This document shows positions 19,060-51,653 of a stretch of 64,000 nt of DNA, piece after piece. Below the pieces are notes generated by a model. It was not told the origin of the DNA. It was given only the letters and a program-made list of their open reading frames with translations, and did no database searches. The position numbers were made by a program, and so were the translations under genes. Source of the DNA: Eledone cirrhosa (taxonomy: Eukaryota); the NCBI GenBank assembly GCA_964016885.1, contig OZ024765.1:3720001-3784000 (forward strand), given 5' to 3'. How positions within the stretch are numbered: position 1 is the stretch's first letter; each line of letters begins with the position of its first letter.

Positions 19060-19287
19060 ATGTTAACATGAATGGACCTATTATTTTTATCTAAAGACAT
19101 TTTTTCCAATTCCAACCCGCTCGTCCCCTCAATCTATTTTATTTCTCATTCTTTCTTCTGATGAAGGACTGGCGTCCGAAACGTTAAGACCCTCTTCCTG
19201 CTATATCAAGTGTTAACCTAATATATACCTTCCATATACTGTACTGATTGTGTTGTTATTTCTGTTTACCTTTTACATATATATACC
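19060..19287 (+). mobile_element. Penelope-like pseudo-LTR fragment; inverted copy at 39088-39320
   Basis: Two dispersed ~220-bp copies, each containing a minimal hammerhead motif. Confidence 0.65.
19154..19189 (+). ncRNA. Minimal type I hammerhead ribozyme
   Basis: tctt-CTGATGA-a-ggac(tggc)gtcc-GAAAC-GTT-aaga: stem I tctt/aaga, stem II ggac/gtcc, palindromic stem III acgt. Confidence 0.75.
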
Positions 19288-19364
19288 AACGTAGTCTTCT
19301 CTCAAGAGACAGCATCTGATCCCCCTTATTCCAAATTTCGCACTTAGATCACTTATGTTTTGAC

Positions 19365-19895
19365 TACGTTGGTATGGTCATGTGATGCACATGAAAGACG
19401 ACAGGTGTATAAAAAAGTGCAGGGCGATCAAAATTGATGGAAGTTACGGAGTAGGTAGACCCAGAAAAACCAGGGGCGATTTGATAAATTCCGACCTTAC
19501 ACCTCTCCAAGACAATCTTACTGTACCGAGATCTTTGGCGCCACACAGTAATACAGAAGACCCGCCTTGCTTATGTACAAAGTGAAACCTACAGTCAGTA
19601 GGCACCTCTTAACCAAATATACACCCCATCTCACTACCCTACTCCATCCTCCCACTCCCACCAACACCACAACATCCAGTCCAAACTAATGAGGTCGTGT
19701 AGGTGTCATGACAAAAAAACACACAGTCCATGCTGTAATGTGGTTGGTGTTAGGAAGGGCATCCAGCCATAGAAAACCTGCCAGACAGTCCTATATGAGC
19801 GAGACACGGTCACCCAACCAATCTTGCCTCAAGTGGGATAATTCCCGTCTAACCCATGCTAACGTGGAGGATAGACGTTAAACGATGATGATGAT
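19365..19895 (+). mobile_element. RTE LINE 3' fragment joined to a SINE-like 3' segment with (GAT)n tail
   Basis: Translates LRWYGHVMHMKDDRCIKKC..GVGRPRKT; ends gacgttaaacgatgatgatg. Related pieces at 16140-16350, 21850-22225 and 43190-43505. Confidence 0.7.
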
Positions 19896-19984
19896 GATGA
19901 TATATATTAGAAAAAATGAGGAAGTTTCATTTTTATGTATTAGATTTTTATAGAAGTTATGGACCTGAAGTGGTCTCCTTGGAG

Positions 19985-20545
19985 CCACAACAAAAACACC
20001 CAGTCCACACTGTATAGTGGTCATGTAGGTGTCACAACAACAAGTACCCAGTCCACACTGTAAAGGGGTCATATAGGTGTCACAACAAAAGCACCCAGTC
20101 CACACTGTAAAGTGGTCATGTAGGTGTCACAACAACAAGTACCCAGTCCACACTGTAAAGGGGTCATATATGTGTCACAACAAAAGCACCCAGTCCACAC
20201 TGTAAAGTGGTCATGTAGGTGTCACAACAAAAGCACCCAGTCCACACTGTAAAGTGGTCATGTAGTGTCACAACAAAAAGCACCCAGTCCACACTGTAAA
20301 GTGGTCATGTAGGTGTCACAACAAAAAGCACCCAGTACACACTGTAAAGTGGTCATGTAGGTGTCACAACAAAAAGCACCCAGTACACACTATAAAGTGG
20401 TCATGTAGGTGTCACAACAAAAAAGCACCCAGTACACACTGTAAAGTGGTCATGTAGGTGTCACAACAAAAAGCACCCAGTACACACTGTAAAGTGGTCA
20501 TGTAGGTGTCACAACAAAAAGCACCCAGTACACACTGTAAATGTT
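19985..20545 (+). repeat. 47-48-bp SINE-derived minisatellite (~12 copies)
   Basis: Direct periodicity. Confidence 0.92.
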
Positions 20546-20707
20546 GTTCTGTGTGAGCGAAATGCAGTTCTCCGACCTGATCTCTCACAATTGGAGACCC
20601 TATCCTACCTAAGCTCACATGGATGACGATGCTATATATATATATACATCTAGCTTGATGTAGGACCCATATTTTAAATCTCATTTCATATTTTCTATCT
20701 ATAACAT

Positions 20708-48290: not shown

Positions 48291-48390
48291 TTTAGACAGT
48301 TTCATAGTCTTGTCTCCAGAGTGTATGTGTTTGTGTTGAATTAAATAACTGTTTGTGGAAAAAGATTTGCCACGTATTTCAGAGCTTTTC

Positions 48391-50274
48391 TCAAGTGTGT
48401 GTTATTTTATGTGACTTCAGATGAATTTTCTGTATGAAAGATTTTCCACATGTTTCACAGTCAAAACGTTTTTCTCGGGTGTGTGTTACTTTGTGAGTTT
48501 TGAGATGAGCGTTTTGTATGAAAGATTTCCCACATATTTCACAGGAAAAAGGTTTTTCTCCTGTGTGTGTCCTTTTATGTAATTTTAACACACCATTAGT
48601 GACAAATGATTTCCCACATACTTCACAATGATGGAGGTTTTCACCAGTATGTTTTCTGTTGTGTAGTGTCAATTCACTTTTGGTGTAAAATAATTTTTCA
48701 CATACTTCACAACGGAAGAGTTTTTCTCCAGTGTGACGAAGTTTATGAGCAGCAAGTTGAGAAGTATCGGTGAAATATTTCCCACATATTTCACAATGAC
48801 AACATTTCTCTCCAGTGTGTGTTCTTTTATGTTTAGTTAAACTACCATTTTCAGCAAAAGTTTTGCCACATATTTCACAATGGCAGGGTTTCTCTCCAGT
48901 GTGTGTCCGTTTGTGAATTCTTAAACTACTGCTAGTGAACAGTGATTTCCCACATATTTCACAGTGAAACGGTTTCTCTCCAGTATGAATACGCTTGTGT
49001 GCAACAAGGTTCGAATTACTAACAAAATGTTTCCCGCATATTTCACAATGAAACAGGTTGTCGCCAGTGTGAATTCTTTTGTGCGTTGATAAATTACTGC
49101 TACACACAAAATATTTACCACATATCTCACAGTGGTAAGGTTTCTCTCCAGTGTGTGTGCGTTTGTGTTTTTTTAGCTTATCATTAGTAACATAACACAT
49201 TCCACATATATTACAGCGGTAAGGTTTCTCTCCAGTGTGTATTTTTATGTGTCTGCTTAAATAACAGTTCTGGGCAAAACATTTTCCACATATCTCACAG
49301 CGGAAAGGTTTCTCGCCAGTGTGACTACGTATATGGATAACAAGTCTGGAATTATTAATAAAAGATTTCCCACATATCACACACTGTAATAGATCTCCAG
49401 TGTGTGTTTTTTTGTGAGATGTTAAATAACTGTTACTGGAAAAATACTCCCCACATATGTCACAGCGGTAAGGTTTCTCTCCAGTATGTGTACGTCTGTG
49501 GATAACAAGAGTTGAATAAGCAACAAGACATTTGCCACATATCTCGCAATGAAATAGACCTTCTCCAGTATGTGTTCTTTTATGTTTTGTTAAATAGTCG
49601 TTACTAGAAAAAGATTTGCCACATATTTTACAGTGGAAAAGTTTCTCTCCAGTATGTGTTCTTTTGTGTGATTTCAAAATACCTTTCAGGATAAAAGATT
49701 TTCCACATATTTCACATTGGAAGGGTTTTTCTCCAGTGTGTGTACTTATATGTGTTGTTAAATTATAACGTGAAAGAAAACGGTTCCCACATATTTCACA
49801 ATGAAATGGTTTCTCTCCTGTGTGCGTTCTTTTGTGTTTTGTTAAATTACTGCTACTGGTAAAAGATTTGCCACATATTTCACAGTGGTGACGTTTCTTT
49901 CCAGCGTGAATACGTCTGTGGATAACAACATCCGAATCAGAAAGAAAACATTTCCCACATATTCCACAGTGGTAAGTGTGTATTCTTTTGTGTTGTGTTA
50001 AATATTTCTTACGGGCAAAAGATTTGCCACAAATTTCACAGTCGAAAGGTTTCTCACTCTTGTGTGTTTCTTTGTGTGTGATGACTTCATCTTCTGAAGA
50101 GAAAGTTTTCTTACAAATCTCACAACAATATTCAGGAATATTTCCGTGTAACGATGTTTGTTCAGTAAACGTTTCATTAGATAAAGGTTTCTCATCACTG
50201 TATGTCTGTGTAACTGTATCTATATTGTTAAACACAGTTGTGTTAGAAATGTCCAACTGTTTAACATCCCCCAT
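48391..50274 (-). CDS. C2H2 zinc-finger protein, subfamily B (627 aa, 21 fingers)
   Basis: Intact ORF; decayed finger sequence continues past the stop. Confidence 0.95.
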   Translation of the reverse strand: MGDVKQLDISNTTVFNNIDTVTQTYSDEKPLSNETFTEQTSLHGNIPEYCCEICKKTFSSEDEVITHKETHKSEKPFDCEICGKSFARKKYLTQHKRIHTYHCGICGKCFLSDSDVVIHRRIHAGKKRHHCEICGKSFTSSSNLTKHKRTHTGEKPFHCEICGNRFLSRYNLTTHISTHTGEKPFQCEICGKSFILKGILKSHKRTHTGEKLFHCKICGKSFSSNDYLTKHKRTHTGEGLFHCEICGKCLVAYSTLVIHRRTHTGEKPYRCDICGEYFSSNSYLTSHKKTHTGDLLQCVICGKSFINNSRLVIHIRSHTGEKPFRCEICGKCFAQNCYLSRHIKIHTGEKPYRCNICGMCYVTNDKLKKHKRTHTGEKPYHCEICGKYFVCSSNLSTHKRIHTGDNLFHCEICGKHFVSNSNLVAHKRIHTGEKPFHCEICGKSLFTSSSLRIHKRTHTGEKPCHCEICGKTFAENGSLTKHKRTHTGEKCCHCEICGKYFTDTSQLAAHKLRHTGEKLFRCEVCEKLFYTKSELTLHNRKHTGENLHHCEVCGKSFVTNGVLKLHKRTHTGEKPFSCEICGKSFIQNAHLKTHKVTHTREKRFDCETCGKSFIQKIHLKSHKITHT

Positions 50275-51403
50275 AGTAATTTACCGAGAATTATCTGTAA
50301 TTATAATCTAATATAGTTCAGTTTCTTGTCTTAAATATCCTGGAACTCTGTTTACACGATATAATTAGATTAGATGTAATTATAATATATTATAACTCAG
50401 TTTCTTGTCTTAGATATCCTGGGACTCTGATTAAAGCAAAAGATAACATGTTCCTGGTTACGTTGAAAATATTTCCCTCTACTGAACAATACCGGTGTCA
50501 TATCAAAATCATATCCTGCGATATTTTAATACATTCGGAAACATCTTTAATTTATCCAACCCATGGTAAATAACTTAATATACATTAGCTATCAAAGTAA
50601 CTACTAATATGTATCATGTTGGATGGCTATACAGGGTTGCTGAACGAGCTATAAATAGCAGTCAAATGATCCCTCAAATTTCAGCCTAACATCTTATTAA
50701 ATGAAGAACACATTGGACGTTATTTTAGTTTAGATATACAAAATATACCTGATGATCATGGTTGGAATGTCTTTTTAACAGAATCTGGAACATTGGCAGT
50801 AACCAATTGGGTAATGAGATCGATAATTAATCAATTTCTTTCTTTGATTTTCTGTGATTAAGTTTTAATTGAAAGTATTAGCCTTATTTTACGTTAGGGA
50901 GTCAACGACACCATCAGAACTAGAAGTAACTCTTATAACTTTCAGATTCTCAAATATTCTAATATTTCACTTTTTTAAATCAACGAAGTGTGACAGAAAT
51001 TTTCAACATTTTAAATCACAAAGAAATGTTTACGTTGAATGTATTTAAAATACTCCCTGTGTGATATCATTACATGATGATGATGATGAGAGATCCCACA
51101 CTCACTGCTGAGGGTCGGGGTCTATGGACAATTGCATCAATGTTCACCTATATGTTGTTGAATGTCCACGTTTCTCCTCGGGGGGAATAAAAAGGAATGT
51201 TGGTGAGTCCCTAATCGGCGCCTGAATATTAACCGGAAGCTGGCTACCAGGTCACAGTTGTCCCCCTTCATCACAAAAAGGAAGGTGTAATTTATATATA
51301 TATATATATAGATGAGATTCTACAGGACTAGAACTGTTTCATTCTCTGCTATGTATTGAGTACCTTACTTACTGTGGTTACCTCCGATTCAACCCGGAAT
51401 AAC

Positions 51404-51462
<59 letters not shown>

Positions 51463-51588
51463 GAAGTTCTATTTAAATTGTTGGGATACAACAAGCAAAT
51501 CTTTTTATAACAGATATAAAGCACTTAAATTATTGGAGTAAAAATACGATATATTAACAAATGGAAACTATATTTATAAAACCATATT

Positions 51589-51653
51589 TATTTCATTATA
51601 CATATTTCAAGGACACCAAGTTAAATTATGGTGTGCTTTCATCAGATAAAATA
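51589..51653 (-). ncRNA. Type I hammerhead ribozyme in Penelope-type pLTR, with inverted partial copy at 51715-51785
   Basis: tattttat-CTGATGA-aagcacacca..tggtgtcctt-GAAAtatgtATA-atgaaata. Confidence 0.7.

Follow-up and report, generated by a model that had tools for sequence, protein, structure and literature searches.

Hammerhead ribozyme folds of four repeat families among zinc-finger genes of Eledone cirrhosa, likely ends of Penelope-like elements

According to the literature, autonomous Penelope-like elements (PLEs) carry hammerhead ribozymes in their pseudo-long terminal repeats (pLTRs), nick AT-rich DNA, reverse-transcribe from the 3' end and mostly leave truncated single motifs behind. 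Cervera and de la Peña 2014 (PMC4209133) found that minimal PLE hammerheads did not cleave as monomers and cleaved little as dimers. Craig et al. 2021 (PMC8557442) described for PLEs a 5' truncation, an inverted truncated 5' copy, a tail at one end and a bias towards microsatellites, and Frangieh et al. 2024 (PMC11167929) reported nicking at AT-rich DNA and traced the tail to initiation at an internal site; the hammerhead of their element needed the element's protein for cleavage and could be dispensed with for insertion in vitro. Retrozymes are defined by head-to-tail arrays (PMC7229834; bioRxiv 10.64898/2026.07.22.740005). In the present study we analysed hammerhead motifs in a 64,000-nt stretch of the Eledone cirrhosa genome (assembly GCA_964016885.1, contig OZ024765.1, positions 3,720,001 to 3,784,000, forward strand; hereafter the window, in which all positions are counted from the first letter), which has 37% GC, zero N and a series of C2H2 zinc-finger (ZNF) genes. 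We consider it quite probable that its six intact motifs are type I hammerhead folds in short, (TA)n-flanked units, likely the 5'-truncated pLTR ends of four independently inserted PLE families and likely inert at these loci.

Hammerhead folds in four repeat families

Both strands of the window were searched with a descriptor demanding an exact CUGANGA, a stem II of at least 2 bp (one extra nucleotide allowed on each side), GAAA, a stem III of at least 2 bp, UH and a stem I of at least 4 bp. It returned exactly six type I hammerheads with an exact core (units A to F, Table 1), all of them at the places listed in an initial annotation of this DNA, whose coordinates correspond to the outer ends of stem I. 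Each of the six has the CUGANGA and GAAA core, the UH triplet and helices I–III, and is open at helix I. As 200 block-wise dinucleotide shuffles gave a mean of 0.29 such motifs (sd 0.50) and never more than 2, the six are upheld as hammerhead folds. The bare core pattern by itself is weak evidence: it occurred 7 times against a chance mean of 2.26, and 7 was reached in 1 of 100 shuffles. When one core mismatch was allowed, 11 extra sites appeared, mostly spurious, and only 22460(−), with a U4C change, looks real. The descriptor gave no hammerhead outside the span 15600–53000 of the window. A comparison with the Rfam models, which the annotation had proposed as a check, returned no hammerhead in the window at the gathering score, nor any among the 119 matches at E ≤ 10; the six are not members of the curated Rfam hammerhead families.

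Each motif lies within a repeat unit of 170–330 nt with (TA)n flanks, and sequence comparison confirmed the proposed division into four families (A/C, B, D and E/F). Units A and C are 92.6% identical over 230 nt and have two nearly identical ends, and E and F are 82% identical over ~280 nt; in both pairs the likeness ends at TA-rich edges. B and D are separate families, yet similar in stem III and tail. A TA run lies within 300 nt on both sides of all six cores, compared with 17.5% of non-coding, non-satellite positions, a cut-off that was picked after inspecting the data; for unit A the runs are 112 and 119 nt from the core. Separately, 23933–23958 (−) matches the 5' end of unit B (20654–20680) at 26 of 27 nt, with no hammerhead after it.

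Table 1. Hammerhead units, partial and inverted copies, and the neighbouring zinc-finger reading frame.
Feature	Position	Strand	Description	Predicted cut after	C3/H17 (triplet)
Unit A	19055..19289	+	Solo repeat unit, minimal type I hammerhead; stem I 4 bp (19154–19189), extra A, stem II of 4 bp, palindromic stem III lacking a loop	19185	19158/19185 (GUU)
Unit B	20647..20812	+	Type I hammerhead; stem I 6 bp (20708–20775) extended by another 6 bp; extra A; stem II long; stem III of 3 bp, closed by a 3-nt loop	20769	20714/20769 (GUA)
Unit C	39088..39320	−	A family; 4-bp stem I, extra A, palindromic stem III without loop	39193	39220/39193 (GUU)
Unit D	41985..42108	−	Type I hammerhead; 7-bp stem I, stem II of 10 bp following an A.A mismatch, 3-bp stem III with 3-nt loop	42026	42071/42026 (GUA)
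Unit E	42305..42621	+	Type I hammerhead; 8-bp stem I, continued by 12 bp past an internal loop; no extra A; stem II with a C.C mismatch; stem III an AU palindrome	42470	42421/42470 (AUA)
Unit F	51459..51714	−	E family; interrupted long stem I and AU palindrome as in E, no extra A	51597	51645/51597 (AUA)
D'	42109..42262	+	Inverted 5'-truncated copy of D, starting at U4, plus tail		
F'	51715..51780	+	Inverted partial copy of F, 3' half only (GAAA, stem III, stem I 3' strand)		
Unit G	22245..22483	−	Hammerhead-like, U4C core change; stem II branched and 61 nt long, stem III palindromic, 4-bp stem I; flanked by TA runs		22460 (C3)
I	42627..42685	−	5' half only of a D-like hammerhead (core 42658), terminated by the end of unit E		
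Unit H	42970..43150	−	Core exact (at 43070); stem III palindromic; stem I broken, with 0 bp		
C2H2 zinc-finger ORF	39520..41127	−	17 PF00096 stretches; probable 3' untranslated region contains unit C; context only		

The palindromic stem III that had been noted in several motifs is indeed present, self-pairing of stem III or loop 3 being 4/4 in A and C, 8/8 in E and F, 8/9 in D and 6/9 in B. The extra A reported after the core is a true bulge in A, B and C but is absent from E and F, and in D it is an A.A mismatch and hence a substitution, because most copies of the D family carry U-A at 10.1/11.1 (149,107 of 199,393 depth in sequencing run X1 and 833 of 1,301 reads in run X18, introduced below). 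The structure is retained through sequence change, both in the E/F pair, where a G-C pair of stem II in one is replaced by A-U in the other, and in the D and E families, whose read variants include A-U at the end of stem II where the D copy of the window has U.G, and a change from A-U to G.U in stem I of E. Among the 40 difference rows listed, of 403, none touches a core position. A loose end in X18 (13,667 reads, possibly from few loci, seen without the 5' half of the core) looks like a variant stem II of the E type, in which two pairs have changed in a compensatory way and the C.C mismatch is kept.

These reads come from a comparison of four public DNA runs, of 20 listed, with positions 41600–43200 at 80% likeness, a region that contains D and E and lies apart from A/C and B. 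The summed contig depth in X1 was 970,716 over the E core and 241,307 over the D core, with 0–7 in unique or junction bins, and the raw reads of X18 numbered 5,407 and 1,277, respectively; summed depth is not a copy number, X18 is a reduced-representation run, and the runs contain at most 0.46 of the words of the stretch. D and E are high-copy repeats. A dispersed multi-copy status is thus evident for A/C and E/F from the pairs in the window and for D and E from read depth. As a calibrator we used a short interspersed nuclear element (SINE) at 42802–42885, scaled by depth, which assumes that the SINE density here equals the genome average. The expectation per window was then 0.6–0.7 (X1) or 0.5–2.3 (X18) copies for the E family and 0.2 (X1) or 0.1–0.7 (X18) for the D family. 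Altogether, a rough 0.6–3 copies of D/E/F type are expected per window from the background, against 3 observed, two of which are the queries themselves.

Insertion hallmarks and a Penelope-like origin

Two of the six units (D/D' and F/F') are preceded by an inverted 5'-truncated copy in a head-to-head layout, with a tail on one arm only. D' is 98.8% identical to D over 86 nt (42109–42194) and continues into ~65 nt of tail that has no counterpart in D and recurs at 21154–21235, and unit F has ~95 nt of tail without a counterpart in F', a copy that the initial annotation did not contain. That annotation had also listed degenerate or partial motifs. Three of these stand, namely 22460(−) with its U4C change, the 5' half at 42658(−) and 43070(−) with a stem I of 0 bp, but the one at 42105(+) is the truncated twin of D and hence not an independent decayed ribozyme; 42108(+) entered the one-mismatch output only with a wrong downstream half. 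The 5' half I is 77% identical to D over 39 nt (E 0.007), and the joint 42043–42641 occurs in sequencing reads.

The statement that no Penelope open reading frame (ORF) is present was borne out. There was no ORF with reverse transcriptase (RT) and GIY-YIG domains among the 28 ORFs of at least 120 aa in the window, tblastn of 77 PLE proteins (RT, helix-turn-helix or GIY-YIG) gave a best E of 0.049, which was a spurious ZNF match, and a profile built from the 77 found nothing in the window below E 1.6; the units do not count as autonomous PLEs. A PLE origin is thus argued from the anatomy of the units and from look-alike loci. The A-type core pattern matched 10 metagenome loci, and in two of them a PLE remnant precedes the ribozyme on its own strand: an RT remnant in one (L009; E 2e-45, Pfam RVT_1 E 6e-5) and an endonuclease region in the other (L010; E 0.001–0.002, no match in Pfam). 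An inverted copy runs across the ribozyme in 3 of the 10, and stem I is lost in 4. At positions 4001–4065 of locus L006, two complete A-type cores stand head to head, 7 nt apart, in the layout of D/D'. The patterns of three families were searched in viral contigs and gave 0 matches each. We also observed that reading frames of ~10 residues end just upstream of A/C, B, D and F; they are possible C-termini of ORFs and were not used as evidence.

Compared with the minimal PLE hammerheads of PMC4209133, the motifs share the type I topology, the extra nucleotide after A9 (A, B, C), a palindromic or near-palindromic stem III, a short stem I (A, C), a long stem II (B, D, E, F), and the occurrence of several families per genome, mostly as single motifs and with opposite-strand neighbours. 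They differ in that the G10.1-C11.1 pair, highly conserved in that paper, is absent from B, D, E and F, in that E and F lack the extra nucleotide and have a stem I that is long but interrupted, and in that no PLE ORF was found with them in the window. The resemblance extends to the insertions of endonuclease-bearing (EN+) PLEs such as Neptune, Poseidon and Naiad (PMC8557442, PMC11167929), which show strong 5' truncation, an inverted truncated 5' copy, a one-end tail and AT-rich or (TA)n targets, as seen here, although the tails of ~65 and 95 nt are longer than the 30–40 nt reported there and an RT/GIY-YIG remnant is lacking here. Naiads have the (TA)n bias in common with our units but no canonical hammerheads. 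If a clade is to be named, Neptune is our guess, made from microsatellite preference only.

The likeliest course of events is that reverse transcription of the source PLEs, begun at the 3' end on nicked TA-rich DNA, stopped early, which would leave the terminal repeat alone and sometimes a fold-back copy with it. Selection for the fold would have acted in those source elements, in which cleavage would be made possible by tandem copies or by the protein of the element, and the local density would reflect the genome-wide load of these repeats together with ample TA targets.

A rather unlikely alternative is that the units are dispersed monomers of non-LTR (long terminal repeat) retrozymes, or of other non-autonomous, SINE-like ribozyme elements, that moved as circular or dimeric RNA with the help of PLE proteins and are not truncated coding PLEs. 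The unit size of 170–330 nt fits retrozyme monomers, the ends of A and C are nearly the same, and the window is without an ORF remnant; non-LTR retrozymes are likewise non-coding and AT-rich, with type I hammerheads in units of 170–400 nt, and solo monomers of them exist (PMC7229834; bioRxiv 10.64898/2026.07.22.740005). However, the present motifs are minimal or have a long stem II and do not take the canonical 6-bp/4-bp form, the 5' extent differs between E and F and among D, D' and F', and the inverted truncated copies point to insertion of the PLE type. A head-to-tail array within the window was rejected, since none of the 52 tandem-repeat rows over 15600–53000 contains a hammerhead; our units could possibly be solo monomers of arrays located elsewhere. 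The two origins also overlap, as the preprint derives retrozymes from pLTRs. The initial annotation had invoked PLEs and retrozymes together; the PLE-type type I hammerheads in non-coding remnants, with inverted copies, one-sided tails and (TA)n, agree with it, whereas retrozyme arrays are absent.

Several observations weigh against a derivation from four inert PLE families. None of the four is linked to a PLE ORF, and as no remnant of one was found in the window, the origin is deduced rather than shown. Eight of the 10 A-type metagenome loci have no ORF remnant, and these loci are look-alikes and not members of the same families, because the search pattern fixed stem II. All 77 query proteins derive from one RT remnant, and other PLE clades may escape them. 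The core and stem I are 100% identical between A and C, which are 7–11% different overall; this fits a recent origin but is compatible with selection as well. Finally, the copy-number calibration is rough and covers D and E/F only, and its low X1 estimate (0.8 per window) gives P of about 0.05 for three copies, two being the queries, which makes a mild enrichment possible; a local enrichment of 2–3-fold may exist.

Predicted activity and the zinc-finger genes

The cost of the hammerhead fold, calculated with 150 nt of upstream context, was 63 kcal/mol for D, 45 for F, 4–7 for A and C (5–7 for C) and 1.5–2.7 for B and E (1.7–2.7 for B). D and F are predicted to be sequestered because their inverted copies form a long hairpin, in which they would be trapped within a read-through transcript. 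A, C, E and F would need a second RNA or the help of a protein, as they are solo copies without a partner here: in the same-family pairs A/C and E/F the two members always face each other from opposite strands, at distances of 20 and 9 kb, and no compatible same-strand hetero-dimer was found between neighbours among the units of the window. Unconstrained dimer folding of A, B, C, E and F gave no double hammerhead, a result that was not weighed because the energy models ignore the core. Unit B is the best monomer candidate, and by these models only B, and perhaps E, would be plausible weak self-cleavers. Cleavage at these loci is predicted to be unlikely, and the intact look of the motifs, with D and F sequestered and no dimer partner on the same strand, is not a sign of activity.

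A density of about one motif per 5 kb had been noted for this ZNF cluster. It holds as 1 per 5.4 kb in a span drawn around the matches but falls to 1 per 10.7 kb across the window, and the descriptor found no hammerhead at any of the three ZNF genes that lie beyond 52 kb. None of the six motifs lies in a block shared between ZNF paralogues. Two blocks of 97% identity enclose A and B, the sequence around these units having no counterpart in the paralogue, and C breaks a 3' flank that runs on uninterrupted there (the homology runs to 39381 and resumes at 39029, with ~20 nt of overlap). With respect to the ZNF genes, C and D are sense, A, B and E are antisense, and F lies between divergent genes. 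A ZNF-specific meaning of the density is thus not sustained, the motifs being high-copy repeats outside paralogue-shared blocks, and they are likely ordinary transposon debris rather than a device for zinc-finger control.

We regard it as very improbable that any of the copies has been recruited for the control of ZNF genes, chiefly C, which would cut the mRNA downstream of the stop codon and ahead of the poly(A) signal. What makes this worth considering is the position of C, in sense orientation 300 nt past the stop codon of ORF 39520–41127 and ahead of the first AATAAA, itself 622 nt from the stop; this resembles the position of the Clec2 hammerhead in the 3' untranslated region, where the Clec2d motif reduced a reporter by 80% (PMC2950038). 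The Clec2 motif, however, is conserved across mammals and active in reporters, whereas C is a minimal, dimer-dependent repeat copy whose insertion is absent from the paralogue flank. With its 4-bp stem I, no loop III and its fold penalty, C belongs among minimal motifs of the kind for which PMC4209133 reports no cleavage as a monomer; the orientation of the six is mixed, and the 3' untranslated region of this gene is only probable. We found no literature joining hammerhead ribozymes with zinc-finger clusters.

A more elaborate form of this idea, to which we give slightly less credence still, would make C a transposon-sensing switch, silent alone and cutting the ZNF mRNA only when PLE RNA of the same family completes stem III in trans or a PLE protein chaperones it; a ZNF gene would then be tuned directly by retroelement activity, in a genome with tens of thousands of Rfam-invisible hammerheads. 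That the motifs are chance hairpins in AT-rich DNA can be practically dismissed: the silence of Rfam and the mostly spurious sites gained with one mismatch would suit it, but the excess over the shuffles and the repeated families with pair-preserving changes speak against it.

Genomic surroundings and significance

The window contains six complete C2H2 zinc-finger ORFs (Pfam was run on one), and a seventh runs off its end. The best 120 of 875 matches of the ZNF proteins are generic, at 34–58% identity, and a homolog search with the N-terminus gave none; none of six ZNF proteins had an exact counterpart in the protein collection. The richness in (TA)n, the types of SINE and the ZNF arrays without KRAB would fit a cephalopod host. 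A divergent ZNF gene pair at 50280–52859 is separated by 2.6 kb. Its paralogue-shared upstream blocks end at 51277 and 52381, and the junction is occupied by unit F together with additional fold-backs, which suggests an inversion breakpoint. More fold-back insertions, of which some are centred on (TA)n and none has a hammerhead core, were seen at 23008–23175, 34115–34262, 51864–51965 and 22713–22970; these may be other inverted 5'-truncated insertions or miniature inverted-repeat transposable elements.

Minisatellites are abundant (19968–20541, 26924–27811, 30116–30927, 34395–35812, 36426–37118, 38005–38743 and 46475–46748), and those of 42, 44 and 79–82 nt that adjoin ZNF exons resemble amplified fragments of decayed zinc-finger coding sequence. 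An 88-nt satellite of ~13 kb at 2806–15650 has inverted blocks and (TA/CA)n islands, and its duplicated spacer (5343–5362, 12888–12907) has heptamers on both strands that resemble the core but form no hammerhead fold. The SINE-like repeat used as calibrator is very abundant, with seven other sites besides 42802–42885 (eight full copies in the window), and is the deepest sequence in all four runs. Two related ORF fragments, 24302–24775 (−) and 31587–32085 (+), are 76% identical over 212 nt and were matched by Pfam in neither case; we take them to resemble the C-terminal restriction-like endonuclease of CRE-type non-LTR elements.

Hammerheads have been counted in a cephalopod before, with 235 Rfam hammerheads in the giant squid (PMC6962438), and the available portion of PMC12513265 makes no mention of Penelope. 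We found no description of the present families among the octopus or cephalopod papers listed, and the supplements of PMC4209133 and PMC8557442 or repeat libraries may already list them. The motifs are real and represent new families of a well-described kind, most likely left as inert PLE ends. They add four hammerhead families that Rfam misses and hint that this animal carries a great many ribozymes not yet counted, since family E alone has an apparent ~10 copies per Mb by our rough calibration, which looks higher than the 2,000–9,000 hammerheads per genome reported in PMC4209133. Were unit C to cleave the ZNF mRNA, the importance would be greater, because this would tie transposon activity to zinc-finger expression through RNA catalysis. 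As they stand, the four families are of use for repeat annotation and as substrates for the question of what role the hammerhead plays in PLEs.

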